A stretch of 64,000 bases of DNA from Sphagnum compactum. Taxonomy: Eukaryota. Shown here one piece after another: positions 1 through 61,227 of this stretch. The notes below the pieces were generated by a model, which ran no database searches, was not told the DNA's origin, and saw only the letters and a program-made list of their open reading frames with translations. Each line of letters opens with the position of its first letter. Within the stretch, counting starts at the first letter, position 1. The DNA lies in the NCBI GenBank assembly GCA_965153455.1, contig OZ234494.1, positions 12,028,001 to 12,092,000 on the forward strand, written 5' to 3'. Position numbers and translations under genes: made by a program.

Positions 1-144
1 TAACCTCCATGACCTTCCATGCTGCTCTGGCAGGTTCCGGAATGATTTTTGTTACCCCCCATATAATTTGTGTAAACTAATATCCTCCATAAACTAATAT
101 CTTCCGATCGGTCCCAAGGATATTAGTTTAGAGAGAGTTAACTG
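1..144. mobile_element. Right end of a Tc1/mariner(pogo)-type MITE inserted at a TA inside the adjacent LTR
   Basis: Ends ...GAGAGAGTTAACTG followed by TA (145-146), the reverse complement of a TA-CAGTTAACTCTC-type TIR. It has an internal inverted repeat TAAACTAATATC/GATATTAGTTTA. Homology of the flank to the 60325-61227 LTR stops at this TA. The left end lies outside the window. Confidence 0.5.
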
Positions 145-645
145 TATAGTATTCTCTGCGTTCGCCTGCGGCACCCGCATCCAAATGGCTTTTCGTCCTG
201 GGACTCCCAAGGAGGAGTCGTGAAACTATCCTGGTTTGGACTCCTGGGACTTTGGAAGCTCATAGCTCCCAGCTCCGACTTCCGATTGAGATGAGGTCTA
301 AAGCAATCTTGTAACTCTCCTCGCGAGCTTTTCAACGGTGTGTCGCACTCCACCTGCACGCACCGGGGTCGGGTCGATTCCCGACTTTTAGTGGTCGGGC
401 AGTTTGACTCCCGGCCCTTCTTTTGACCATAACTTGTGCTGTAGATCTTCAAATGGCCTATGTGAGCCCATTTTCGACATCTACACTTCAAGACCTTTCC
501 ACCGGTATAAAGAACTTTTCAATGCAAGGTGTTTTGACCCCTATAATCAAGCTCTAAGTTTTCGGGAGTCCCCGAGGACTCCAAGTCCCCACTTTCGGGA
601 GTGTGAGTCTCATCCTCACACTTGCCTCAAAGTGGGGTTGCGACA
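145..645 (-). mobile_element. Partial LTR related to the solo LTR at 60325-61227, apparently inserted into the gag region of the Gypsy element
   Basis: The reverse complement begins TGTCGCAACCCC. It aligns by eye with about 60450-60930 (shared AAGTTATGGTCAAAA, GACCACTAAAAGTCGGGA, CCGTTGAAAAGCTC, TAGACCTCATCTCAATC). Strand is relative to that copy. Gag-like coding sequence resumes directly at 646 with no PBS. Confidence 0.75.
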
Positions 646-1125
646 GTCACAGAGGCCCAAGTTATCCAATTTTGGTATGGGATCCTAAAAAAAGATTTGA
701 GATGAGAGGTGTAAGACATAATTTTCACCTAGCTTACCTAACCCACGTTGGCACTGATTTTGTAGGTATTTAAATGCATTAAACTCAACATGGTGAAGGA
801 GAAGGTTGTTACCCTAGGGTTTAGTAGGGAAACCCTAAAACCTTCTCCTACTTCATTGACTCAACAATCACGTGGTTAGGCATCGAGGACTGCACCACAA
901 AAAGGCAAGGGGCCCAAACAGGAACCCCGTGGGGGTTCCCCATCCTACACTACTAAACATGGGGGAGAGGATAAGTGTTGGAGGTGTGGTGGGCCACGTC
1001 GGAAAAAGGATTATCCCATTCCTCCTTAGGTGACCACCTCTAACCCTAATCCCAACCAACTTTGTTCCCATTGCAAGGTGGATGTAAACCATTGCTTCAT
1101 GTTTCATCCAAAGTTATGGCAAGGT
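646..1125 (+). pseudogene. gag: Gag C-terminal part with degenerate CCHC zinc knuckle
   Basis: VTEAQVIQFWYGILKKDLR*EV*DIIFT*LT*PTLALIL, then QLCSHCKVDVNHCFMFHPKL at ~1057-1116, a knuckle-like motif with a small deletion. Confidence 0.55.
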
Positions 1126-2093
1126 CAGTTCTAGACATAAAATGTGAGGAAGTCTTTAGGTTTTAGCAGGGGCTAGAAAACGAATGGTGTGGCCAATAAA
1201 AGGCCGGCTACCAAATTAGTTCCAAACCAACCCAATGCCATGGAGGCACAGTTTGCACGTTTAGAGGCGTTGGTGACGAGTATGGCATCCAGCATGGCAA
1301 CATAGGTGAACTCATAGCACCTATGCCAAGTGATTATTCAGCTTAGGGTTTCGACCCTGGATTTTTTTGTGGGGTTGGATTTTCAAGGCCATTAAGTCCA
1401 GATGAGATCAAATCAGGTATTCCCGACGGTCATGTTTTAAGGGTAGCCAATGACAAAACCCTAGTCATGGTTTTGACAACCGCACCAATTATTAGGGGAA
1501 ATGTTAAAGTGCAGGAACCACAAGGTGTTGATGAGAGATTAAATCCTTAGCGTGGGGAGGCTCAACATTAAATTCGTATGCCACAATCCTTCATGTTGAT
1601 CGACACAGTCCACACTTCAATGGACACATCCAACCCCATGAGGGCATCGATTACAACCATTAGATTGTCTGGTTCCACTTCAACAACTTGGGCACCCAAT
1701 AGTGTGTGGGGGGCAACTAGGTTGGTGTGCCAAACACCATTGTTTCCCACTACGATGCTTGATTATCGACCAACTACAATATTTCTTATGGCAGCCACAA
1801 TATGTGATAGCATGGATACACCAGGGATGGTGGCTACACCTATCAAGGATTCCTCGGAAAGCTTATTCTGTCAACCACCAATTGGCCAAATATTTGTTGG
1901 CGACATACCTGTCGACCATTTATTTGTTGACCTACATGTGAGTGCATTTGTTGATGGATTACATGTTGGCCAGCCACCTGTTATGGTGGTGCCATCTTGG
2001 CATGTCGCAACAGCCAAATTCCAAGAGCTTCCAACACACCCACCCATTAATCAAGCAAGAGTTTTACCTAGTGTAGTGGTGGTACAGAATTAA

Positions 2094-2480
2094 GAAGGTG
2101 TTTTTCAAATGAAGGGGGATTCAGGACAATATTATCAACTCAAAAGGATATTACTGGATTGAAAAGCTCAACTTTTGATGTTGGGAAAAACAACATTGGA
2201 GGGTCTAAGGTTGACCAATGTTGATTTGGAGCCATGCATGTAGTAGGATTTTGACATGATGGGTGGGTCAGAAAGCTAAGGGGGATAACCAAACATGAGG
2301 TCGTCATTTAAGTTAATTTCATTAGACCTGCAGATTATATTAAGGTTTGTGCTAAGGTAGTGGTTATGTAGGCTACATCGTATGATGTGTTGGTTGGGGG
2401 GGGGGGGGGGCATTTTGTATCCCTTGGGAATCACCCTAGATTTTTGGGAAGAGATTGCTTATTATCAACCATGATGGCAA
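2094..2480 (+). pseudogene. Retropepsin-type aspartic protease domain
   Basis: KRILLD*KAQLLMLG is a decayed LLD(S/T)GA motif at ~2143-2185, in frame with ORF 1578-2093. The downstream SYDVLVGG motif lies at ~2378-2400. Confidence 0.7.
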
Positions 2481-2668
2481 ACATGAAATAGTCATAAGGC
2501 TTTTCTGTTAGTTACCTTCATTGGGGGGCTAACATTAGCCATACATTATATTCATCAGGCTTTGCACATTCTATCGTCACCAAGCCCATAGGTACTTGTA
2601 GATCTAGGCCATGGACCACTTGGTTTACGACCTTTGGATTCTAGGGTCATTCGGTGGCATGTCATGAG

Positions 2669-3630
2669 GATGGGATTTACATGGTAGAGCTTTTTGGAGG
2701 CATTAATTCTAGCCTTGTAGTAGTCCTTCAATTCGGCATTAAGCTTCATCGATACTACTATGTGGAAAAGGATCCTCAAGCCCGACAAGCCTCCATGCAC
2801 CATATTATGATGTTGCGACAACAACATCTTGAGTTGTTGCTTACATCAGCAATCTAGGGTTATTAACAGGCCTTACCAAACAACATCACATTGTTGAGGG
2901 CGCATGATTTGGACAAGATTGGACCAATGGACTTGGTCATATCAGGATGGCCGTGTCAGGGTTTATCATAGGCTAGCATAAGTTAGGGACTTTTAGACCC
3001 CAAATCAGGGTTATTTTGGGAGTTGATTTGGGTGCTGCAATATTTGCAGACCTCTTAACTACACTCATTTACATGTGTTGGAGACCCCAACTTTGGGGGA
3101 TTTTCGGCCAATTGTATTGGTAACATGGCAACAAATTAAGGCTTGGATCGAAGAGCCAATGCAAGTGGATGCTACAATACGTGGTTCATGTGCCCACCAC
3201 TTTCGATGGCTATGGACTAACCTAGCTCCACTAGAGGTACTTCAGAGTGCATATTAGTTCATTCCAAGGTCCCACATGCTTGGTGGATGACATTTTGGAT
3301 CTATGACGACATTCTTTTGTCGTTTAGCATGATGATCGTCTAACTTTGGTTATAATCAATAAGGTTGGCCTACCTTGGGTAACTTTACCTATTCTTTTGA
3401 GTTTTTTCCATTTTCACGCACTTCGAGATTGCAATCCAAACATGATTTGGGACGCCAACTCATCTAGGATGGAGGAGCCCAATGTTGATGAACGAGAGCG
3501 AGCTATGGGATTTCACACAAGCACCACAACTGTACAAAGACTTTCCGAAGGTACTCATAGATGGATATTAGGACAAGTTATGGACCTTATCTGTTTCACA
3601 TGGATCTTTACCCTTTGTTGGGCTGAGTAG
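2669..3630 (+). pseudogene. C5 cytosine DNA methyltransferase catalytic domain, DNMT3-like with unpermuted motif order, embedded in pol
   Basis: Motif I IYMVELFGGI (2675-2704); motif II RYYYVEKD; motif IV GPMDLVISGWPCQGLS (2921-2968, PC at 2951-2956); SGLFWELIWVL; decayed motif VI VLETP; motif VIII PMQVDATIRGSCAHHFRWLWTNL; motif IX ERERAMGF; motif X RWILGQVMDL. Confidence 0.93.
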
Positions 3631-3974
3631 GTCCAATTTGCACAATCTTTCTTGCCCACCCACCCTTCCTCTACTTTTGTTGCACCTACATCTAGGTTAG
3701 TTATGTTGGTGCAAGGGGGGGGGTCATCTTTAGCATTTATGGGTTCAAGGATTTATGGGTAATGGAAAAGAGGTTTTTGATGTGGGGGCGCCAGGGCATT
3801 TTGGTGTTATGCTACCTTTTGCATAATAATCATAGGTTTCACCTTCAACCTTGGGTGCTGGGGATGTTCCATCATCTCAGCCCAAGGTACAAGTGACCAC
3901 AGGGACATGGGGGCCAGATATTGGTCCCGCGGTTATAAGAGATGAGGTGTAAGAAGTACGATGGCTATTATAGG

Positions 3975-4700
3975 ACCATGTTTGTTGTTTTGCCTTTAGT
4001 TTGAAGGAATTGGGACAGTTGAAAGGACATGAAGTCTGAATTGTATTGGAGGATGATAATCCTATTTTCAAATGACCTTATAGGTTGAGTGAGATGGATA
4101 GGGCCTTGGTTTAGGCTTGAACAACAGAATTGTTGGATGCAGGTTTGGTGGAACTGTCGAGAATTGAATATGTTTCAGCCATAGTGATGCCACCCAAGAA
4201 GGATATTTTTGGCAATTGGATGGAGTAGCGCATGTGTGGGGATTATCGCCCAGTCAACAAGCACACGCGTTTGGACAAGTATGCCATGCCTTTATTGGAG
4301 GAGATCTTTGATGCCCTTGGTTAGGTCAAGGTTATCAGTACCTTGGACTTGAGGTATGGCTACCATCAATTGCAAGAAGGTGATAAGGTCAAGATGACAT
4401 TTTGGGGAATTGATCTTCATGGGAAGGATTGTCCGTATCAATAATGGTTTTTGCCATTTGGTTTGAAGATTGCCCTTGCAGAGTTTCAGAAAGTGATGGA
4501 TCGGGTGTTGGTAAAATTTAGTTTTTCCAAGTGCTACATTGATGACATTATTGCCTTTAACCCGACATCAGAGGATCACAAACATCATTTGTAAGAGGTA
4601 TTCGAAAGATTTAAGGATCATAACCTTAAGTTTCATCCATGCAAGTTGATTTTTCCAGACATAGGTAGAATACCCGATCGTATGATTTATTTAGGTGGAT
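3975..4700 (+). pseudogene. Ty3/Gypsy reverse transcriptase domain
   Basis: PYRLS...RMCGDYRPVNK...YAMPLLEEIFD...STLDLRYGYHQL...LPFGLK...FQKVMD...CYIDDII, with YIDD at 4535-4546 and many in-frame stops. Confidence 0.97.
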
Positions 4701-5215
4701 TAAGAGTATAAAAAGCCAAGGTTGAGGCCATTTCATAGGTGCCTTAATTGACTGATGTTAGCCGGTTACAAGCCTTTTAAGGATTGTGTAATTAGTACTA
4801 GAAATTTGTTAAAGGATTTAACAACATTGCTAAACCTTTAACTAGGTTGATGCAGATTGACCAGAAATATGTTTGGGGAAAGGAACAAGAGCACACATTT
4901 CAGGAGTTGAAGGCCTGGCTTTCCTCAGTCCCCAATTTAAGGTGACCCATTCAAAGACATCTTTTTCAGTTGCATATTGATTAAAGTACCTTAGGATTGG
5001 AAGCCGTGCTTACCAAACTGGATGATGATGGTCGGGTGCTATTTGTATGGTAGCCCATTTACCTTGCTTACCGATCATTAATCCCTAAAGTTTCCGATGG
5101 AATCAAATCAACTCACATGAAAGTTGGCCAAATGGGCATTTATCTTTCAAGAATATGATTTGAATATTGTTCATAAGGTTGGTAGGGTTAATTGGAATGC
5201 CGATGGGTTGAGTCA
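4700..5215 (+). pseudogene. RT connection and RNase H domain with an internal deletion
   Basis: FQLHID*STLGLEAVL, YLYGSPFTLLTDH*SLK and LAKWAFIFQEYDLNIVHKVGRVNWNADGLS. Confidence 0.9.
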
Positions 5216-5560
5216 GAACTCAAGTTCCAATGAGGAGGATCCCACAGGTGCCAGGTGGCATGGAAAGGTGGATTTGGAGGCAATACTAGGATGGCATGCC
5301 TCTGCATACCTATGTATTTTGTTGGGATATTTCAAATCAACTCACATGAAAGTTGGCCAAATGGGCATTTATCTTTCAAGAATATGATTTGAATATTGTT
5401 CATAAGGTTGGTAGGGTTAATTGGAATGCCGATGGGTTGAGTTAGAACTCAAGTTCCAATGAGGAGGATCCCACAGGTGCCAGGTGGCATGGAAAGGTGG
5501 ATTTGGAGGCAATACTAGGATGACATGCCTCTGCATACCTATGTATTTTGTTGGGATATT
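5103..5560 (+). repeat. 229-bp tandem duplication (5103-5331 / 5332-5560)
   Basis: Two adjacent near-identical copies; by eye they differ only by a C/T and a G/A transition. Confidence 0.95.
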
Positions 5561-5799
5561 TTGGGGATGTATCCCAAGACAACATGAGTAGTGGGAATTC
5601 CCACAATGACGATGATGAGCCAGAAGGCAATGGTGCCCTAGACATCCATTTAAATTTACTTGTTATGGCCTATCTACAAGCATGAAAAATTTCAGTGGGA
5701 TACCCAAGGAGTGAGATCAAATTGTCCATAGGGCAAAACGGTTCCAATGGGAATGTAATTCCTTATTATGTGTGTGGATAGATGGGTGAGTATGTGTAA

Positions 5800-6860
5800 T
5801 ACCATGCTTAGAATAGCATGAAGGCCTTGTACGACATGCTCATGAAGAATTGGGCCATTTTGGGGTTTGATGGACCTATAGTTTACTTAGGTAATATTGG
5901 TGGTGTGGGATGCAACTATAGGTTCAACAATTTGTTTCTCGGTGTATGGTGTGTGATCAAGTACGTGCATCATTCAACACACCAACACCCCAACTACAAC
6001 CCTTACCAATTATGGGGCTAGGTTATCAATGGAGCTTGGATTTTGCCGGCCCATTGAGTTTGATGCCTCGACATAATCGATATGTTTTGGTTATAATTAA
6101 GCACTTCTCTAAGTGGTTAGAGTTGGTGCCATTGCCAAAACACAATAGTGAGGGAACTACATATGCATTTCTGGACAAAATGTTCCAGTTGAGGTTTTCA
6201 TTGATCAAGGTACAAAATTCTGAAGGGGTTTCCAAGATTTGTGTGAAAAGGCATTAATAGATCATCAAACTACTTCATGATATCATCCTAAAGCAAATGG
6301 GTTGGCCAAACAAATGGTGTAGATAGTGAAGCGAAAATTGCGGAAGTATGCCCTTTATAAATGCCACATTCAAGATTGGGACTTGTAGTTACCATGGTTG
6401 GCCATAGGATATAAGTTTAATTTGTAGGCCTCATTGGCATTTTTTTCATCGTATTTTTTGTTATTCAGTCGGGATCTTGAGCTACCAGCTTCTATTCAAC
6501 ATGATGTTATGATTGTGATTAGTTTCGATGACCTTTTAGTGTGGATTTAGGCATATGGGTAGCGGGTTGCTTTGTTCAAGTGTGTGATGCATATGGCTAT
6601 GGAGAATCTAACAATTGTTTAGCACCAAGATACTCTTCGATACGCCATGATTTGTGGAAGAGGTTATCGACCTTGAGTTTGTAGGTTTGAGCCAAGGGAT
6701 TATGTTTATTAGTAGTAAATAACACCTACCACATTGGATGTGACTGCAGGTCGTGTGATTTTATGTGTTCGGAAGGTTTTACCTTTCGAAGTATTGTTGT
6801 TGGAAGGACGAGATGGTTAGACATAGAAAGACCATGTGCATAATTGTGTGCCATGTCATC
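5800..6860 (+). pseudogene. Integrase (HHCC zinc finger, DDE core, C-terminal region)
   Basis: HAHEELGHFG...YWW...CMVCDQ; WSLDFAGPL (D at 6039); IDQGTKF; YHPKANGLAKQMV, where the expected catalytic E reads K. Confidence 0.93.
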
Positions 6861-6919
6861 TTCTTAATGTGAATGGCTAGATTGACCCATCATTGGTTGT
6901 TATACTTGTTGGTTTACAA

Positions 6920-7063
6920 TGTATGATGTGTGGGCAATCCACAAGAATTGCCATTATGTTGGTTTGTGACCAGTGTTCAAAAGGATGGCACATGGCATGT
7001 TTGACACCGCCTTTCGACTAGGTATTGGTTGGCAAATGGTTTTGCTCTCGGTGCATCCAATAG
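6920..7063 (+). pseudogene. PHD finger (C4HC3) at the polyprotein C-terminus
   Basis: CMMCGQSTRIAIMLVCDQCSKGWHMACLTPPFD*VLVGKWFCSRCIQ* retains all eight Zn ligands and the conserved W-x-C. One internal TAG probably derives from CAG. Confidence 0.9.
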
Positions 7064-10000
7064 ATGTGGTTCCCATAATTACATAATAAAAGTAGTTAAA
7101 TTTTTTTCCCTAGGATGTTTCACCTTTGGCTAAGTATTTGAAAGATTCCATATAAGCGGTTAATGATGGGGCTCACATTTGCACCTAGCTTAATGATCCT
7201 TTTATCTTGTAACTAAAGGGTTCACCTTGGTGGATTGTTGGCGGTAGTTGTATAATGTTATCTACTTCAAGGGATTTCAATGTCAAATAGGGTTTAAATG
7301 TGGTGTACCAATTAGGGTATTTTTTATTATGTGTGATGAGTATGGTGACAACAATAGTTGTAGGTGTCGACCTTGGAGTGCACAATAGACGTGGCAAAAA
7401 TATTCCATGGCTTGTCAAAAAAAATTCTACCATGACATGGAATATTTTGTCACGTCACAAAATATTCCACCATGTCTAAATAATTTCCACGTGGCAAATG
7501 AATATATTTAAAATATTCCATGACATGGCATGGAATATTTTTAAAGATGTTCTTTCTTGCTCACTTAAAGCGAGCCCTATTCATGTTTGCTTGCTCACCC
7601 ACTTGCTTGCTAATGTCGTTGCACATAGTAGTTATCACTATTGTTTTCTTAATCTTGATGATCCTATGGTCCTATTTGTTGTCATGGTTTTTTGGTTGTT
7701 ATATTTAATAGTTGCCACCATGACACTTTTAATTTTGATGATATTTTATTTTGGGGGTTTGTGAAAGGGTGATGTGGAAAGCATATTTGAAGGCTGAATT
7801 CAAATATGGCAAGACACATGTTTCAAAGTTGGCATACAAATGCATGAGACATGAAAACATGAAACCCATTGGCCTAAGAAAATTGGTATTGATCCATTAT
7901 AAACTATTAATATAGTTTTAGAGCTTAAAAGTATATTAATTTCACTTAATTTGGCCTTGTGAAAACTTATAACATTTTTTTCATTGTTTTTTATGATGTT
8001 TGGCATCATAGAACCTAATCAAGAAGTTACTTGGAACCTATTCTAACATACCTTAAAATTGGGAATAAGCTTGATTTGAAAATTAAAAAAGAACCCAAAC
8101 CAAACTTCACATTAAAAAATTGAATTTAGAAATAAGTCCCAATTTTATATAAAAAAGGAACCTAATTGAAACCAAAACTGACCCCATAATGTTATTTGAA
8201 ATTGAGACTAAAGGTTCTTCTTAAAACCTAAGAACCACACAATAATGGTAAAGAATAGTCGATTCCAATTAATAAAAACCCAATCCAAATTCGGTTTAAA
8301 TTTTAGAATTGGAATTAAAATGAATTTTTATTTTTTAAGAACCAAACTTAGAATTGATTCTTGATTTTATTTATTTGTCAAAATGAACCAATATCAATAG
8401 AAGTGATTAGAATTGAGAATTAATTGGTATTCAACCACAAGTTGTGGTTTGGGTTAATAAAAAATAATTTCAAATCAAAATTGATTTTCAAAATCGAAAT
8501 TATATATATATAAATTGAACCCAAAATTGGATGCCAACTCCACTTATGCTTGGAACCTGCATAATTCTAATTTAATTTTCAAAATCATTTTTTCTTAAAA
8601 ATAGAAAACCACCAAAAGTTAGTTTTTTGTATATCCTAGAGTCATTAGTTGTTAATGTAACTTATGACATTGGCCCAAGAGTGAATTGGTTACCCAACTA
8701 ATTTTTCCTTTCAAACTTTTTCTTGGCAATTTAATTAAATTTCAATGACAAAGATACTCAAAATTCAATATTTCTTACACCTTAGGCAAAATATTTCAAA
8801 TCATGTTCATTAAATCCCACTTTCGGGCGAACTTTCCAACGAGGTGGAAAGCATGCCCAAACTCCTTTATAACCTTTAATTTAGATATAAATGACTTTTC
8901 AATGTTCAATATTCAATAACTTCTTCATCGTAGGTTGAAACATTATGAAATCAACTCAATGCACCCCTATTCGACGAGAGATTTCCAACAATACCAAGAG
9001 TGCACAAGAGGTGATGTGGTTTGAGACATCCACCAATACCAAGAAATGCAACAAGAGGTGTTGCGGTTTTGGAGGTCTGGACAATACAAACAAACAAACA
9101 ACCTTCCTTGATAGATTATGCTTGCTTGTTACAAAGGGCCACCAGGATTTGAAATTTTTTTCCTAAAAAAACTAGGCCAAGCACATAGCACACCTTCTAC
9201 AGTTTACTTACTCAAACCTAGCACCCATTTTTTTCCCACAAGTAAGGTTAGGGGAGGCCAACAAAATGGCTATTTATTTGAGAATAAAATGGCTTTTTGG
9301 CAAAAACAACTTTCTTAAAATGGACAGTGAGCAGGGGGTAGGTATCCATAAGCCGTCTTTTGATTGTGGCCGTCCAAAATCCAAGATTAAAAAAAAAGCC
9401 TTAGAAGAGATCTACGGTTGGGAACTCCTCTCATCAAAGCCCAACCGTCTCCCACGAGGGGACAGCATCAAGTTCCAAGCGTCGTTGGATGGATCATGGG
9501 ATCCGATCGTACGGACCAGAGGAATATCTGGTTATCCCTTTTGTCTCCCCGAAGTTGGCAATCATTGGTGGTACGACACGTGGCGTAGTGATGACCCAAT
9601 CTCTTCTCTCTGACTAGACCGCCCTTTCTCTCAAAACCGACCTTTTTGGGAGTTTTAAGACTTCACTCTTACTGGCCTTTTGGCACCTTTTATCTCCACG
9701 TGTTAAATGCACACTTTTGTGGTCAGATATGAAAGTGCAACCTATCCAGCCTGTGTTTTTACTGGCTATATATATATATCCAAAAAGCGAAATTAAAAAT
9801 TAAAAGTTCTAAACTCCAGTGCTTTAAAAAAAATTCTATAGTCCTAATCATGCCAAAAAAATTATTTTTTTTGTTGGATTTTCATAAATGGTTCAAATAA
9901 GTAGCCAAAATAAAATAAAAGGATGTTTAATTTTTTAAGTTTCATATTTTGCTTGTAGTCAAATTTGGCTAAATCGTGCAATGGATGATCACCACTTTGG

Positions 10001-10652
10001 CTACATCACAAAATTGACAAAAGAAGACAATTGAACCTATCCAAAGCCTGATGAGGAAAAGTAGGCCTTGGGTGAACTAGTGACTATAATTTTTACCATG
10101 GTGAAAACCAATGTTGTGTGTGTAAATGTAAAATATCATGTGTAATAACCATGTAAGTGTAAATCATTCACATTTCACACTCAAGTTTTTACATTTTTTA
10201 TTGTTATTGTTATATTTTGTCAACTACACTTACATGGCAATATTGTATATTTTTTGAAAGGCAATTGCATGATCCCAATATAATTTGTGATTTTATTTTC
10301 TTGGATTTAAAAAAAAATTTGGAGTATAAGAACCTTTTTGTTTTGGTTAAAACTTTTTTTGTTCTTGGGAAACAATGAACCTCCAATCTAACAAATGTTC
10401 ATATTGATCAAATATAATGATTGGTTTCGGTGGTTTTATTTAATTAATATTAAGCTTGTAATTGTTTTAAATCTCATGTTTATGAATGAGGCTTAAAAAA
10501 CAATATGTAATCCAAAAATATTGTTGGAGGCCCAAATACCAAGTATGTATGGGTGGAGCTACTTTAAGAAACATGACAATATATTGAAGAACCAGATGAA
10601 AATTGTCAATTATTTTGTTATAGTTTTCAGATGACCCATAATTGTTTTTGAC

Positions 10653-11107
10653 CAATGTTGTGTAGGTATACTATTTTTGATATATCCTAAAGCAAGGGTA
10701 TATTAGGATTCATTTTTTTCCATCATATAAAGTTTTTGATATAAATATTATAATTTTTAGTAGATGGGTAGGGTGTGGGTAATCACCATCATATACCCAA
10801 GGTTGGGGTAAGAAAATAGGTATGTATTCTAAATTTATTTAGTAAAAATAAAAAATGTTCATATTTTGAAGTTATTAATATAGTTTCCAAATTAATGGAA
10901 TTCAATTTTTTTTTACCCTAGTTGTATGGGCATATTTTATATATACCCAATGGTATCAATAGGATACGATTTTTTCAGATGTATATATTTTGGGTATGCA
11001 TTTCATTATGATACATTAGTTTTAAGGAAATAGATTAAGATAAAATATATACCCTACCCATACTTGACAAGTATATATGGGTAAAAGAATATACTCACAC
11101 AACATTG
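10653..11107. mobile_element. hAT-type MITE (455 bp)
   Basis: TIRs CAATGTTGTGT...(C)ACACAACATTG with flanking 8-mers TTTTTGAC/GTTTTGAC (7/8 TSD). Related CAATGTTG termini occur at 10109, 11116 and 13111. Confidence 0.65.
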
Positions 11108-14100
11108 GTTTTGACTAATGTTGGGCCAATATCAAATTTTGAACATATTAGGTGACATTGGTATAAAATCTTTTATGAAATATTCACAACAACCTCCAAT
11201 TGGTATTGGATTTATTTGAAAGCTTTCATACGAACCAATAAGGTCTTAGGCTAATCTTTGGCTAAAACTTATGTGGTAGAGTTTATACTTGGTATTGAGA
11301 TTCATATAACCCTAATATTAAACTAATATTACATTACAAGTGTCAAGTCCATGTTAGTCATGTTAAGTATTGGTATGAGATTGGTATTGCTTCAGCTGCA
11401 TTAGTTTGATATGTTTTCTAATATCAATGTAGCAAAAATTGAGGTTGTGGTTTCTTTAATGACAACATAGGACTAACTCACCTAAACCACACTTAGGTCA
11501 CCAACAACTTTACAATTCATGACAATTCACCAAACAACATCATAAAACAAATCTCAACATCATACTCCAATGTTTCCCCACGGCAATGACTATTATCAAC
11601 ATAATATCAGAGGCTTAATCAATATTTGTAAATTATCGAGGAAACATGATAAGTTCTGCAAACTTGGTGGATTAGATCTCTCTAGACCACTCTCTTTAGG
11701 CTATTATTATCTCGCTTGGCGATCACTATTTACAGGGCTTTTTTTTTCAACCCATTTCACCCCAACAAATTCATTCATGAAATTTTGACAACATAGTTCT
11801 AGCCATAGACACTTCATAATGTGTTCCCTTATGCCCCAAATTAGTGCAACGTAACCTTCCCATAGTTCCCAATGTATGAATCTTTCTTCTTGAACAAATA
11901 AGTTTTGAATTTCCCATTCACATTCCATGACAATCCTTCAACGATGCCTTATTCAGACAAGCCTTCAAGTCCCTTATGGATTTTCATCATTTCCACCAAA
12001 CATACACATTTGTTCATGTTTTTTTGTTCTACAAATGTTTAATCTATTAATTCCATTGCACAACAGAAAAGAAAAATAGTTGGAAAGAACTAAGTTTTTT
12101 CTTGACCATGAACATTCTTCTCGACAATCTAATCAATAGTCAAATGTCCAGCATCTATTGCAACAACATTGTTAATCCCTAACTCCAAAGCAAAAGAAGT
12201 ACTTAACTCTTGAAACATTTAACCTTTTATCGCCTCCATTGTGCCCTCATGCTTGGATTCCGCCACCAACACCTCCGGCTAAGTCCACCATTGCCAAAAG
12301 ACCATCAAAAACATTAAACAAGAAATTGGTTCCTCCATCGTCTTGAAATTACTCTCACGATGCACACCACAAATTTTTCTAATGCCACTAACCTGCATCA
12401 AACAAACATTCACACTTTAGAAATAAAAAAGAAGAAAAATCCATCAACTATCCACTCCCTTGTTGCCTTTTGCTTTGAGTTGCACAATCCACTTTTCATC
12501 CGTTAAATATTCACTTCAGTGAACATCACATCCCACCCCAATTCATCTTACACTAGGACCAACACAAATCTACATGCCAAGGTTCCAACTTGGTACTTGC
12601 CCAACAACACTGGCCAAGACTAGCATTGGTATGTTATTGAGAGATTGAGATCGATTGGTTATCAACAAGAATCCAAAGGGTAGGTTATTAATAACCTACT
12701 TGTCACTGGTAGGATAATCTACCTTGCCTAGAATGTGTTTTGTAAAGACTTGACAATACCTTTATGAATGAGGTATCGTTTCGAATAAATAAGAAAATTG
12801 ACCTTGAGGTTTTTTGTATTCTATCCTATTAGGTTTTTAATTTCTCAACCCTACATGTTTTTTTAGCAATCACCCTTTTTGTTATCATGTTGGAACTCTG
12901 GATGCCCACGTTTGCCGGATAACATAGTCTATAATTTGTACTTTATTGGAACACATTGTTAAATGTGTAACCTCATTCTTGAAAATAAGGCCATTAAAAT
13001 AAAATTAAAATAAAATCCCCATCAAACATGCCTTACTTGGATAGTATAATTAGATTTTTTCAAGGCAAGTATTTGAAAGTCGACCCTTATGCATAAAAGT
13101 TAGTTATTATCAATGTTGTGTGGTTCTTAATTTTTAAAAGAACCTTTGATCCTGATTTTGATTCTTAAAAAATAATTGGAGGTTTTTTTAATGTGAGTTT
13201 GAGTCCAATTCTTTTCATTTTAAAACCTTGTAGTTTTGATTGACATATTTTTTCAAATTCAAGTGTAACCAAAAAGGAGGATGTCAATAAATATCTCATA
13301 ACAATAAACATTACACATCAATATGAATAATTCACACAACAATGTTGTTCCTCTTTTATTCAAGAGTTTGTTGAAACATGGTTTCCAACAATTTATTTCA
13401 CACCAACACACAACAAAGCTACTATCACTTACAAGTAGATAGACATATATTGATATGCCTTGATGACTATGACCAAAAAAATGGATCAAACTTTTTCCCA
13501 TTCACATCTCTTGTTTGTCGCTAGGTATCATCCCATAATCGAGCAAACCCAAACTCAAAAAATTAAAACCTTATTCTCTCCTCCATTGATAACAAGATTT
13601 CCACCCAAACCCAAAACACAACAATTCCCTTTCTTTATAGTTCACCACAAAACATAAACCCTAGCTCCATATGCTCAAATGTTGGACTTGTTAGGGAGTG
13701 AATTTTAAACGTTGTCGACAATTCCATTCTCTAGTCCTAGGTCAAGGAGAAGAATCAACACCTACATTCTATTCTACAATCTTCAACTTTACGTTTCCTC
13801 TGCAATGAAATAAGAAAATTTGGATATAATGCTTTCTTGTAGAATCGAGACAAAAAACAGACACAAGCCTAAAGATATGCACTTAGCTTCACTGAAGTCC
13901 TCTCCAAAACCTCCCCACTTAAATCTTGCATCGGCATTCCTTATCTCCATCTTCAATTGCTCCTTCTCCATTCAAAGCCTCTCCACACAAATCTTATTAG
14001 CCATCACACAAACTCAACAACAAATTAAGAACAAAAGATTCATCAAAGCAGTAACACCCCTCCCCTCATGCCAGTTGCTGCCATTGTTGTCAACTTCATG

Positions 14101-14580
14101 AAGAAAACAACCAAAAAATTAACTATCACATCCCCATGCTAAAAAGGTCTCAAAAACACAAAACCTTAAAGATGTTCTTCATTTCACATGACCCGTCTTT
14201 AGATCATGTAAGAACTGCTAGGCTTGGTTCAAAACCGAGTCTGCTTAATGTAAATATCACACATTCCCTTATGCCAAATATTGTCTTGATAAAAAGTTTT
14301 ATAACAAATTACAATTGAGGTTCATGCAGATATGAAGTTCAACAACTAATAAAAACCCTATTGATACTGATACCCTATGTGGAGCCCATACAAAAACCAA
14401 CCAGGCCGGTAATGAAAAAAGAAAGGATCGGTCAGTCTCTTGGCGGAGTGGAAGGGAAGGAGCTCTGCTGTGGTCAGTGAGGAGTGTCTTGTTTGTTTCT
14501 TTGTTTTTTTTTTTTTTGTAGGGTTTGGGTTTTTAGAACAGGGAACAGCGCTGCAGCGTTGCAATCTTCCGGTGGTGCAG

Positions 14581-17341
14581 ATGATGACCATGACTTTGTT
14601 GAACGCTTCGTCATCTGCTGCTGTTGGATGTTCTATTGTTGCTCCATCACTGCATTGTACTCAAGTGCTTTTGTCTCCTCCTCCTCTGCTGTGTGGAGGT
14701 CATAATGCCCATGGCATTCCCTCTCCTTCTAGAATTTTCCCCTGTATTGCATCTTTGCGGATAGGCAGGTCTGTGCTTGTTTCAACAAAGCTTTCAGTTG
14801 GCGCTTCTTGTACAAGCAACCGCCACAGACTCAGAAGGTAAAAGTGTTTTTGCTGTCCCTCCCCCCTCCATTGCTTGCTGTACTGTTTATGTGTCTACTT
14901 TGTTATCTTGGTCCTGTTCTCGTCTACTTGTTGTGAGTACAGCAACTTTACTGGAGATTGTGTAAGTTGCATCAATGGAAGCAGAAGAAGAAGTTTTGGT
15001 TGTTGTTGCTTCTGCTACAGTTGTTGAATTGTGGAACTGGTGGGTGTGTTACTTTTATTTTTCTTCCACTTCTTTTTAGGCTATTATTGCCTGTGTGTAC
15101 AGAAGAAGCAGTTGGATGCCTTCTTTTAATGTCACACAGGTGTTCAACTTTGTTGCTGAATTCCTCCCTGAATCAGAGACCAATTTCTTTTAGATATGAG
15201 TTTTACATAGTTTGCTGCCACATTATTATGACTAACTTAAGACACAGGTTTCAACTTTGCTGCCTTGATTAGGGTTTATCCTAAACCCTAAACCCAACCC
15301 TTTTCAACCTTGATGATATGGTTGATGATGCCTTCAACCAAGAAGAGTCAGTTGAAGAATGTGATTTTGTTGCTGTATTCATCCCTGAAGCAGCGACCAA
15401 TATCTTTTTAGATATGAGTTTTACACAGTTGCTGCCACATTATGACTAGGTTAAGACACAGGTTTCAACTTTGCTGCCTTGATTAGGGTTACCCTAAACC
15501 CTAAACCCAACCCTTTTCAACCTTGATGATATGCAGCAGAATGATTCTATTTACATTTTGTCTGGAATTTAGGGTAAACCGATAATGAAATCAGCACCCT
15601 GATATGCAAGTCAGATGTTTGGGATTTGACCTAGGCATAATGTGATATTCCTTAAGACTCAATAGTTGAGGGTGGACCCTGGAAAGAAGCAGGCACAATG
15701 TTCTCTCATAGGGTTTAGGGGTTTCGCTGATAGAAAGCAGGTGAGTTATGGTACATGAAATGGTATGAGGCAGATGGCATGAGCTCTTTGTCTTTGGTGA
15801 CATAGTCTGTTACTAGAGCTTGATTTCATTGTTTGTGTTTTTCTCACCACTGGCTTCAGGGCTAGTTTTTTAACTTCATTGGGTGTATCTATCGGTCTCT
15901 GGAAATGTGAGCAGGACAGCAAGGGAGTTTGCAGGAGGCCATCTGGAAGGTTCAGGTAACATACTATATGCCTGGCAGAAATGGACCCAGATACTTGCTT
16001 GCACTTTCCCAAGAACTCCTTTTCCTCAGGAGGCACGAATGGTATGAGTGCAGCTTACAAGTTGAAGAATTTCAAAATTCTCTTTATCATTGTCATCAAG
16101 CTCTCATCTCCAGTTGGTTTGTGTCTGAAATCTGGTTCCAACTGCACTTTTCACACAATATTATGCTTAAGTTTTTGTGGCCATTTTCTGTGAAGCTTCC
16201 CAGTGTTGCACATTGGATGCCCCTCTTTATGTGTTGCAACACTGTTGAACAGGGATCAGCAGATATAAGTCTGTGAAGAAAGTAATACAGGAGTTTGACA
16301 AGGATGATGACATTGTGGTGGTATGTGATATGGTTTATCTTTTCCCTTCCATTTTTTATCAAGCATCTCAAGAGCAGCATTATTCTCACAAACCAAGGGT
16401 CCAAGTAAAGAACACATTTTTGGATTGGAAACAGATAATATGTGATGTGAGGGATTTGCAATGTGTGCTTTTGAGAGATACTGACTACAATGAGTCAGTA
16501 CTCCAGAAAATATTGACACTTTGACTTTGTAGGATGGATGTTCTAATTCAATGTGTTGCGGAGATTAAACCTTCTTTGAAACCAGAAGTTGTAAATGCAG
16601 TTTGTCAACACAGAACTGAGTTTTAAGATGAAATCAGGAGGCCTTCAACTGTTAGGAAACAGATGCTAATGTGGCAATTCAGGGGCCAGCTAATGTGGCA
16701 TGCTACTTCAGGCTATTAGAAGAACTCTCATGAATTTTTGTGGATGGTGAATTGCAACGCAGAGTGGAGCCTGTCCAGAAATTAAATGTGGGGGTGGAGG
16801 AAGTATTGGCAGCAAAAGAAAGGGTCGGAAAGGGGTATGTTATGGTCTTGAAACTGACAACCATCAAAGGCTTCTTTCCAGAGATGGTTTAAATTAGAGG
16901 ACATTGCCTGGAAGTCGACCGAAACCAAACTGCAGAAATCATTACTACTGCATGTTAAGAATCACCAACTGTCCAATCTCCTAAACATAAGAACTGACCT
17001 CATATGTTTTATTTTTTGTGGTCTGCTTGCAGGGAAGAAAGGATCCAAGATTAGATGAGAAATATCCAACACTGTCATTTCTTGAAGCCCAAGAGCGAAT
17101 GATCAAGGAGTGTAACAGACAGGTCCTGGTTGATGCTGAGAATCTTCTTGCACAATCTAATAATAAGTTTGGGCTTGTTTTAGAAATTGCTGAAGAAGCT
17201 AATGAATACTTGCGCCATAATAAGGATGAGAGTTTGACCAGAAAGCCCATTTTGAAGGTGATTAGTGATCGGATTAATGAAGGTGCTGGAGAGCAATTGT
17301 CAGATGCATACATCGAGGATTTTGTCACATACAATGATTAG
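14581..17341 (+). CDS. PTAC7: PTAC7/PAP12-like plastid-encoded RNA polymerase-associated protein, spliced, with predicted transit peptide
   Basis: Phase-consistent GT-AG model: 14581-14837, optional 15860-15955, 16263-16320, 17033-17341. The N-terminus is Ser/Ala-rich and acid-poor. The last exon (LSFLEAQERMIKE...DAENLLAQSNNKFGLVLEIAEEANEYLRHNKDE...KPILKVISDRINE) resembles the PTAC7 core as I recall it. Middle exons are uncertain. Confidence 0.7.
15188..15533 (+). repeat. ~130-bp direct repeat pair in intron 1 containing telomere-like motifs
   Basis: 15188-15320 and 15406-15533 are nearly identical. Each contains TTAGGGTT followed closely by CCTAAACCCTAAACCC. Confidence 0.9.
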
Positions 17342-18802
17342 GGTATATAGTGGGGTAGAAGAGGTATGCACAGTTATACTTTAAAAGTTTATACGGTCAA
17401 GTTGCAGTTTGCTAGTGTACAGATTATGATAGGTTGCCTTGATTGGCATCTCAGTCAGTAACTCCACCTGAATTGCATGTGGCATGTAGTTGTTGACTTC
17501 TAGCATATCTTTTTGATGAAGAGGGAGACACAAGAAGATTAGGGCAGTAAACCCTAAACCCTAAACCCTTAAAAGTTTAGTTATTAACTTCTTTCGTTTA
17601 CTTGAATTCTATGAATACTGTCTTTAGGCCTAAAGATTTTTGGTTTAGCTACATAATTTAGAGTTCAAAAGTTCAAAACTTAGCCCTGTGTGGGGGATGA
17701 AACTGGACAGAATCTCTCTTCTCAGTGCTGTAAAGCACTCAGAGAAAATTTGTCAGCTGTGTGGAGGGCACCTTATATCCATGATTTTCCCTCCTAGAAA
17801 TTGGGAGGGATATAATGCCTCCTCAAGGGTGGGAGGGAAATTATGCCTACTTATAGGTCTAAGAACCCTGCCACTATTGAAGAGTAGGCATAATAACCCT
17901 CTGGTTTGTAAAACTTGTGATTTACAAATTTTGCCTTGTGCCTTATGATAGTAAAAGCCTATGGTTGGGGAACATTCCCAAAATTCAGGGTCATACTCAG
18001 CTATTGCCGCATCCTCCGACCCTTATTTTGAGAATGCCCCCACCATAGTGCTTTACCCTACACAAAAATTCTGGCAGATGCATAATCATCAATGAACATG
18101 GAGAGTGATGAAAATAGAAGGCCAACAAGTCCAAAACAAGTACTTATTTTTCTGCAGTCTCCTTTACTGGGTGGATGTACAATAATAACCAAAATAACTT
18201 GTACAGCCACTAAGGAAATCATTCAAAACAAGTCTCTGGGTTAATTACCCAAAGGAAAAGAGAACCCACAAAGAAGATGAGCCACCTAAGTCAGAAATTT
18301 GGATAAGCTTACATATCATTGAATAGGCACCTGTGTTATTGTCAACTGAAAGGTAGTGAGAACTGAGAACATGTCCACATGAAGTTACATCTTTGTGAGG
18401 AAGGTTCGCCCAATTTTTGAACATTTTTCATGCTCCAGAACCGCTTAATTAATCATACTCCGGCCTCTGTGGAGCACTGGCTGCTTTGCACAAAGGAATG
18501 GACTGAAAACCACAGGACATAAGCAGACATATTGTCCAGAATCTGTTCCATCCTAATCTGCCACATACATCTGACCTTAAAAAGAAAGGGATAATCCTCA
18601 GTGTGAAATACCAAGGCAAATCCCCCCAGGCCCAGGTGCTAACTAACTCAAAATGGACTAGTTGAGTCAATTGGAGGGAGCCTACAGGTTCAACAACTTG
18701 CCTGCCCCACTTCGTAGAGTTAGCAAACCATAGACAGGAAGCCTCCAGCCATCAAACCCTCAGCCCTAACCTTAGATCCAAAAGCATTTGTCTTGGCTGG
18801 AG

Positions 18803-28496
<9,694 letters not shown>

Positions 28497-60324: not shown

Positions 60325-61227
60325 TGGCGCAACCCTAGCCTTGGGCTCGTGACCAAGTCAAGGGGTTGCAAGGTTGCGGGCCAAAAGGGAAACCCAAGAG
60401 TCATGTTGCATGCTCCCGGGAATGCAAGAGAGTGTGAGGGAATAAACCCTCACACTCCCAAGGGAACTCCCACTTTGGGAGTTGGAGTCTCGGTGGACTC
60501 CCGAATGTTCAGAGAGAGATCGCAGGGGTCAAAACCCAATGGATTGAAGAGTTCTTTATATCATTGAAAAGATATTGAAACATAGATGTCTAAAATGGGC
60601 TCGCATGACCCATTTGGACATCTGAAACACAAGTTATGGTCAAAAGAAGGGCCGGAAATCAAATTGGCAATTTGACTCCCGACCACTAAAAGTCGGGAGT
60701 CGACCCGATTTCCTTGCATGCAGGTGGCATGCGACATACCGTTGAAAAGCTCTCAACGAGGGCTACAACTTTGCTTTAGACCTCATCTCAATCAGAGGTC
60801 TGCACGCAAAGTTATGGGCCCCCAAAGTCGTGGGAGTCCCGGCTTGGGGAATTTCGAGACTCCCACTTGGGAGTCCTGGGACAAAATGTCATTTGGATGT
60901 GGGCCTCGTGGAGAGGCACAAAGTATACTATAAGGGGGAAGGTGGTGGCTTCCCCAAGTTCGGGCCGTGGTGAGTCTTGTGAATCCGAGTTTGCCCGTGG
61001 CTCGTCCTAGCACCAAAAGTGCTCCAATTGTGCACTAACCACTTTGTGCAGGTCCGTGTGAATAGTTTGATGCTTGTCATTCTTCCTAGTCCCATCCCAG
61101 AGCTCCAGCATGCCCCTCTACCCCTCCAAAGTGCTGCAAGCCAGGGAGCGTGCCCCGACTCCTTATTCTTCCGTTGTTTTCTGTTTGGACTCACATTTGA
61201 ATCCCTCAAGAATTTGGGAGCGCGTCA
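60325..61227. mobile_element. Solo LTR (903 bp)
   Basis: TG...CA termini (TGGCGCAACC...GCGCGTCA), flanking 5-mers CCAAT/CCAAC (4/5 TSD), a GC-rich block in AT-rich flanks, and homology to 145-645. Confidence 0.85.

Follow-up and report, generated by a model that had tools for sequence, protein, structure and literature searches.

A stretch of Sphagnum compactum DNA 64,000 nucleotides in length (the window, meaning the whole stretch that was analysed) carries near its left end, at positions 2669 to 3630, the remains of a cytosine methyltransferase coding sequence surrounded by the remains of retroelement genes. The question raised by this locus is what kind of methylase this was and how it came to lie in a retroelement. 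A sequence-only reading had described the domain as DNMT3-type and unpermuted rather than DRM, MET1 or CMT, with the catalytic Pro-Cys retained, and had attributed it either to capture from the host or to inheritance within an old DNMT3-retroelement lineage. From the analysis reported here it is very probable that positions 2666 to 3624 hold the decayed DNMT3-like methylase of a Ty3/gypsy LTR retrotransposon, one that belongs to a retroelement-borne lineage and was inherited with the element rather than recently captured. The kind of element is already known, KnitGypsy-Dnmt3 having been described in 2018, and the window copy is a new, dead member of it.

A decayed methylase in a gypsy-type element

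The four segments that had been quoted for comparison with DNMT3A were all found on the plus strand between 2669 and 3630, and the DNMT3A strings used for that comparison agree with alignments to PDB chains. The motifs occur in the order I, IV, VI, VIII, IX, X (Table 1), which is the linear, unpermuted order of C5 cytosine methyltransferases, collinear with DNMT3A and as the sequence-only reading had it. DRM was rejected as a candidate, the circular permutation of that family (motifs VI to X ahead of I to V) being absent.

Mapping of the intact relative L021, a metagenome locus described below, onto the window divided the methylase into three pieces, each in a different frame. Two frameshifts separate them, one between 3043 and 3087 and the other at 3251/3253, and six stop codons lie on the methylase coding path, four of them in the first piece and two in the third. 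Because of these six stops and two frameshifts, spread over three frames, the window methylase is a pseudogene. Of the features that mark catalytic competence, Pro-Cys is present, while the open frame, the ENV of motif VI and the R-x-R of motif VIII have all been lost; Mp4g09160 of Marchantia polymorpha and L021, unlike the window copy, retain all four. The window copy can express no methylase and is a dead pseudogene without a function of its own. Retention of the catalytic Pro-Cys was thus correctly reported as to its presence, but it has no functional meaning because the copy is dead.

The N-terminal half of the domain, read in a single frame (P0001), matched Pfam PF00145 with an E-value of 2.7e-6 and 27.5 bits against a cut-off of 22. 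Searches with the C-terminal pieces P0004 and P0003 alone gave neither a Pfam match nor, at E up to 10, a match to any PDB chain, so that the DNMT3 parallel of the C-terminal segments is carried by the family profile described below and not by the window alone. A read-through of the whole domain, with an X at each break, matched a hidden Markov model (HMM) of the intact relatives from position 2 to position 312 of 313, with 249.6 bits.

The domains around the methylase were called by a read-through Pfam scan of positions 1 to 9000 and by mapping L021 onto 1575 to 7054. They follow the order gag, protease span, DNMT, reverse transcriptase, RNase H, integrase and PHD finger, which is the Ty3/gypsy order, and the window maps onto both open reading frames (ORFs) of L021 with that order preserved and the PHD finger (L021 ORF2 residues 990-1034 by Pfam) included. 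About 1.9 kb separates the zinc-knuckle remnant from the Pro-Cys downstream of it, a spacing equal to that in L021 ORF1, where the CCHC stands at residue 415 and the PCQ at 1028. A match to the integrase core family rve (3.7e-4) is below the Pfam cut-off. In the counterpart of the ORF1/ORF2 boundary, at about 3870-3900, the stop codon and about a dozen codons have apparently been lost. No LTR was found in the window, either by a repeat search (seed 14, 150 nt) or by BLASTN of 1-1500 against 6500-14000, and a Pfam scan of the plus strand of 9001-18000 gave no match. Judged by the distances in relatives, both the 5' LTR and the beginning of gag are expected to the left of base 1, and the 5' end of the element would then have been cut off by the window's left edge.

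Since the C-terminal pieces have no matches of their own and the frame is broken many times, it was considered whether the motifs could be chance matches, or could belong to a host gene that decayed and has nothing to do with the retroelement domains next to it. Both versions are contradicted by the full-length score against the family HMM and by the mapping of L021, in which CCHC, DNMT, reverse transcriptase, integrase and PHD finger have the same order and spacing, and the chance that either holds is negligible.

Table 1. Retroelement and methylase features of the window, with positions counted from its first base.
Feature	Position	Strand	Frame	Remarks
gag CCHC zinc knuckle remnant (CWRCGG...)	976-993	+		His and last Cys no longer recognisable
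Middle of ORF1, degenerate (protease-match span and linker of L021)	1575-2519	+	3	tblastn with L021 ORF1 residues 534-833, 23% identity, E 1e-7
DNMT segment 1, motifs I-IV	2666-3043	+	2	Stops at 2855, 2864, 2969, 2984
Motif I, LFGGIN	2690-2707	+	2	
Motif IV, GWPCQGLS	2945-2968	+		Pro-Cys at 2951-2956
DNMT segment 2, motifs VI and VIII	3072-3251	+	3	L021-mapped piece 3087-3251
Motif VI remnant, HVLETP	3072-3089	+		ETP where relatives have ENV (ILENV)
Motif VIII, AHHFRWLWTNL	3192-3224	+		First Arg replaced by His (AHR to AHH)
DNMT segment 3, target-recognition region and motifs IX, X	3253-3624	+	1	Stops at 3304, 3325
Motif IX, ERERAMGF	3490-3513	+	1	
Motif X, RWILGQ	3559-3576	+	1	
Reverse transcriptase (CYIDD at 4532-4546) and start of RNase H	3908-5035	+	2	Pfam RVT_1, 2.5e-12; 51% identity to L021 ORF2 residues 24-402
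RNase H region (RT_RNaseH)	5040-5574	+		Split by 229-bp tandem duplication
Integrase zinc-binding domain and catalytic core	5709-6227	+	3	Integrase_H2C2, 2.3e-9; 54% identity to L021 ORF2 residues 581-754
Integrase C-terminal part, PHD finger at its end (6920-7054)	6179-7054	+	2	Pfam PHD, 1.1e-7; 51% identity to L021 ORF2 residues 744-1034

Several other features of the window were recorded. The tandem duplication in the RNase H region of the dead element consists of 5103-5331 and 5332-5560, which are 99% identical. A repeat of about 500 bp at 145-646 on the plus strand is separate from the element and has an inverted copy, 76% identical, at 60477-60903. It has a very high copy number, its read depth being roughly 100 times that of adjacent bins, window positions 371-501 are covered by poly-A RNA reads, and copies of 71-80% identity lie inside the metagenome loci L006, L008, L009, L014, L015, L024 and L028. 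No match came from Rfam for 1-900 or from tRNA scanning of the whole window. A multi-exon host gene occupies approximately 20000-28000 on the minus strand, with a 239-aa open stretch at 20605-21324; its exons look like those of tubulin-folding cofactor D, which the gene may encode.

Intact relatives and their organisation

A HMMER search of a representative protein library with P0001 returned 715 proteins at E up to 1e-3. The closest were short, degenerate-looking fragments (P0005, 82% identity over 116 aa), and among the remainder were many polyproteins. Named members of the family come from the chlorophytes Monoraphidium, Haematococcus and Chromochloris, from the zygnematophyte Closterium, and from Marchantia polymorpha, in which several family proteins of 1160-1281 aa are found. 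Mp4g09160 stands for a cluster of 18 members with an identity of at least 90%, which are spread over several chromosomes; such near-identity of the Marchantia copies across chromosomes suggests recent activity. A scan of genome contigs with P0005 found no relative.

Two main architectures were seen among the 189 full-length domains and the window. In the first, the chlorophyte type, the DNMT lies between RNase H and integrase, giving the order reverse transcriptase, RNase H, DNMT, integrase, PHD finger. In the second the DNMT lies ahead of the reverse transcriptase, after CCHC and protease, and is followed by reverse transcriptase, RNase H and integrase when the protein continues. The layouts are split by tree clade, with the named chlorophyte members in one clade and the named streptophyte members in the other.

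Of the 80 loci found by a scan of metagenomes, 31 had a near-full methylase match. The methylase frame was open in five of these 31 and carried stops or frameshifts in the other 26. At the DNA level, no similarity between the window DNMT and the metagenome loci was found at E 1e-10. One of the loci, L021, is an intact element, with an ORF1 of 1369 aa (CCHC, a weak protease match, DNMT), one in-frame TAG, and an ORF2 of 1047 aa containing reverse transcriptase, RNase H, integrase and PHD finger. Apart from PF00145, Pfam found in ORF1 only the weak Asp_protease_2 match, at residues 708-757, and no DUF3444. Intact relatives are about 9 kb in length with two ORFs. Direct repeats, 92-94% identical and 7.1-8.7 kb apart, were found at L003, L026 and L016; those of L003 and L026, about 8.7 kb apart with the coding region between them, are LTR pairs.

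All 80 loci were searched for the stop at the ORF1/ORF2 boundary, and in each of the 28 that could be mapped it was found at the homologous place (TAG in 20, TAA in 8). The codon after it was always CAA or CAG in these 28 loci, as at L021:5083-5091. In L013, L018, L020 and L021 the stop is followed by CAR-YYA, which we take to be a read-through context of the tobamovirus type.

In an intact element ORF1 encodes gag with its CCHC, protease and a DNMT3-like, unpermuted C5 methyltransferase, one conserved in-frame stop comes next, and ORF2 encodes reverse transcriptase, RNase H and an integrase with a PHD finger at its end. Live elements would produce the methylase as part of a Gag-PR-DNMT protein, and Pol through read-through of the boundary stop. 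Lying in the Gag-protease ORF upstream of a leaky-looking stop, the methylase would be made in Gag-like amounts. Its target may be the cDNA of the element or the new insertion site, and the PHD finger may steer integration by reading histone tails. None of these proteins can come from the window copy, and any activity of the retroelement DNMT lineage is a prediction from its sequences.

Some further variation was observed within the family. The PHD finger ends the integrase where a chromodomain would be expected. In motif IV, GWECQ replaces GWPCQ in many otherwise intact retroelement methylases (P0083, P0118, P0105 and others), and across 14 aligned domains (alignment A1) the only invariant residue of this motif is the Cys. 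In a 1417-aa protein, P0042, the C5 methylase is accompanied by an N6-adenine methylase domain of Dam type, and the protein recalls the dual-methylase elements of which the available text of 10.64898/2026.05.21.726589 gives an account. P0169, a polyprotein of gypsy-DNMT-PHD type, is filed at NCBI under a Minisyncoccia bacterium metagenome-assembled genome, and probably represents algal DNA that was assigned to a bacterial bin.

DNMT3 likeness and descent of the methylase

Against PDB chains, P0001 placed DNMT3C (1.4e-5), DNMT3B and DNMT3A on top, with E-values for the three of 1.4e-5 to 8e-4; DRM (1e-3 to 0.05) and M.HaeIII (0.07) ranked lower. A family profile built from 14 intact domains gave the same first place to DNMT3, with 93 bits for DNMT3A and 71-85 bits for DNMT3B and DNMT3C, followed by tobacco DRM (54-58 bits), Arabidopsis DRM2 (46 bits), M.HhaI (31-39 bits) and DNMT2 (28 bits or less). 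DNMT1 and ZMET2 chains are contained in the PDB, and no DNMT1 or CMT chain was matched by the profile at E up to 1. The profile is collinear with DNMT3A in three pieces (query 88-127, 161-282 and 368-412 on chain 11-50, 67-184 and 245-289). On DRM chains, motifs I-V of the family align to the C-terminal part (query 92-221 on chain 226-352), as is expected since DRM is permuted. An AlphaFold model of the Mp4g09160 domain had a mean pLDDT of 95.3 and a pTM of 0.92, and all 30 of the Foldseek matches listed for it, from ranks 1-50, were DNMT3A, DNMT3B or DNMT3C, with E-values down to 3e-20 and TM scores of 0.66-0.73. The similarity ranking and the predicted fold of this relative support the assignment of the domain as DNMT3-like and unpermuted, in agreement with the claim that it is not of DRM, MET1 or CMT type.

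The likeness to animal DNMT3A, DNMT3B and DNMT3C thus consists of collinear motifs, the best match in sequence and in fold, and a short stretch from motif VIII to motif IX. It has its limits, as identity in the structural alignment is 20-23%, the family is without a PWWP or ADD domain, motif IV reads GW(P/E)CQG where the animal enzymes have GGSPCNDLS, and the retroelement methylase sits in a polyprotein. Plant DRM2 shares DNMT3-related chemistry and was the second-best family in the PDB searches, but it is circularly permuted whereas the window runs from I to X.

DNMT3-likeness alone is no proof of an origin from a eukaryotic host, because P0286, a stand-alone PF00145 protein outside the retroelement clade and its nearest outgroup in the IQ-TREE analysis below, also matches DNMT3A best in the PDB (100 bits, with DRM2 at 83 and M.HhaI at 71). 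Given P0286, a non-host origin of the methylase module is possible, and the module might descend from a C5 methylase of prokaryotes or viruses and resemble DNMT3 without being derived from it. Prokaryotic methylases have been taken up by other retroelements according to the available text of 10.64898/2026.05.21.726589, and P0042 joins Dam and DNMT domains in one protein. We consider such a descent improbable, since the family profile prefers DNMT3A to M.HhaI by 93 bits to 39 and the Foldseek matches listed were all DNMT3, and since the gypsy DNMTs of Klebsormidium are placed in a divergent Dnmt3-related clade in the part of PMC5890265 that was available, their kinship to the present clade being one of description rather than demonstration. 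Neither the representative library nor the word-indexed protein searches yielded a canonical DNMT3 or DRM sequence, and canonical DNMT3 could in principle nest either inside or outside the retroelement clade.

Descent within the retroelements was addressed with two trees. In a FastTree analysis of 190 rows (the 189 full-length domains and the window), the window fell in a set of 33 rows with support 98, of which 29 are gag-PR-DNMT proteins. An IQ-TREE analysis of 60 rows, which took in 49 hand-picked from the 190 (141 being left out), the five open metagenome loci and five PF00145 outgroups whose kind is unassigned, placed the window in a clade of nine rows (97/85) with five Marchantia proteins, P0260, L003 and L013. 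It is contained in a larger clade of 39 gag-PR-DNMT rows (95/95), Closterium among them, and the chlorophyte-type layout forms a separate sister clade of 16 rows (96/80). The window row stands on a long terminal branch (1.21) and is unusual in composition, both as expected of a decayed copy, and its exact place within the clade is therefore unsure. The N-terminal half of the window domain is 40-48% identical to the Marchantia and metagenome elements, and matches animal DNMT3 only at E 1e-5.

These results bear on whether a local gypsy element recently took its methyltransferase domain from the host's own DNMT3. The domain is DNMT3-like and unpermuted, as that would predict, and host DNMT3 genes are kept in non-flowering streptophytes according to the available text of PMC6453930. 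On the other side, the window domain nests among Marchantia and metagenome retroelement domains that share its gag-PR-DNMT and RT-RH-IN-PHD layout, and is closer to them than to animal DNMT3. In plant host DNMT3 the methyltransferase domain is followed by DUF3444, as described in the same source (Yaari 2019). L021 ORF1 is unlike such a protein, because Pfam recognises in it only the methylase and, weakly, a protease, and hence no DUF3444; the window domain, for its part, is flanked by gag, protease and reverse transcriptase. A recent host capture is thus very improbable. Since the window falls with the Marchantia elements, the methylase appears to have been inherited with the element, and of the two origins offered by the sequence-only reading, the comparison of sequences favours the old retroelement lineage over a fresh capture from the host.

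Selection, copies and relation to known elements

That reading had also proposed a dN/dS comparison across copies, and in the intact relatives the values of 0.09-0.18 are those of purifying selection. Pairs were formed among the five open metagenome loci (L003, L013, L018, L020 and L021), and dN/dS was 0.12 for L020 and L021 at a dS of 0.27, 0.09-0.11 for L018 with L020 or L021 at a dS of about 1.5, and 0.18 for L003 and L013 at a dS of 1.6, dS being above 1.4 and hence saturated in most of the pairs that gave a value. L003 with L018, L020 or L021 gave 0.11-0.22 at a saturated dS of 2.2 or more, and the three pairs of L013 with L018, L020 and L021 gave no value. Purifying selection on the methylase holds for the intact relatives among the metagenome loci, which is its scope.

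In a DNA sequencing run with the same species label, contigs with 80% likeness to the window reached a summed depth of 478-569 over 2401-3600, and contigs identical to the window had a depth of about 40. The summed depth is read only as several related copies and is not a copy number. None of the poly-A RNA reads examined, about 12% of one run, fell on 801-4000. Contigs with a second species label matched the flank at 10788-11544 at about 93% and the element part 963-2433 at about 92%, which would be consistent with an insertion that preceded the divergence of the two species.

The nearest named relatives are the Marchantia proteins Mp4g09160, Mp8g17980, MARPO_0204s0011 and others, which fall in the same clade with 45% identity over 278 columns. 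These ORF1-type proteins are annotated as hypothetical, as CCHC-type or as DNA (cytosine-5-)-methyltransferase, and like the window element they combine a CCHC with a DNMT, which lies near the C-terminal end; in Mp4g09160 all motifs are intact. Whereas the window copy is broken, those of Marchantia are open and differ little from one another.

The closest described system is KnitGypsy-Dnmt3 of Klebsormidium nitens (de Mendoza et al. 2018, PMC5890265), described in the available text as a gypsy LTR retrotransposon whose coding region contains a Dnmt3-related domain, unpermuted and free of introns. Key residues are conserved in its live copies, its Ka/Ks of less than 0.2 compares with the range found in the present relatives, and a yeast assay was inconclusive. 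It differs in that its DNMT lies in the Pol ORF, whereas here it lies in ORF1, after gag and protease and before the conserved stop, and the available description mentions neither a PHD finger nor land plants. No Klebsormidium sequence could be identified among the family matches listed, and kinship to KnitGypsy-Dnmt3 is by description. Cytosine methyltransferases are also carried by SymbioDIRS-Dnmt3 of dinoflagellates and by the EpiLTRs of Cymbomonas and Euglena, which as described in the available texts have other backbones (DIRS, and a chromovirus with Dam, respectively); the EpiLTR methylase is placed sister to DNMT4 (10.64898/2026.05.21.726589).

In the available texts, DNMT3 retroelements of green plants are described from Klebsormidium only, and no land plant is named; 10.64898/2026.05.21.726589 and PMC12344493 (2025), where they speak of retrotransposon-embedded DNMT3 in streptophytes, only cite the 2018 work. 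A literature search for gypsy-DNMT3 elements in bryophytes or mosses and for the Marchantia gene ids found no report, and the supplements of PMC5890265 and PMC12344493 may include such sequences. In a survey of plant LTR elements the words methyltransferase and PHD were absent. As a tentative proposal, somewhat less likely than not, land plants (at least liverworts, and the organism of the window with its close relatives) might carry an undescribed gypsy branch in which a DNMT3-like methylase lies in the Gag-protease ORF before a conserved, leaky-looking stop (TAG or TAA with CAA or CAG as the next codon), a PHD finger closes the integrase, and some copies are intact and under purifying selection.

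It is odd, and little understood, that some retrotransposons encode an enzyme which normally silences them. One retroelement-borne DNMT lineage extends to a liverwort and to the organism of the window, and the branch nearest the window is the one with the conserved stop between methylase and Pol and the PHD finger of the integrase. If the proposed branch exists, its members could methylate cytosines of their own fresh insertions in the genomes of land plants. The open copies of Marchantia, a tractable model, are concrete material for asking what such a methylase does.
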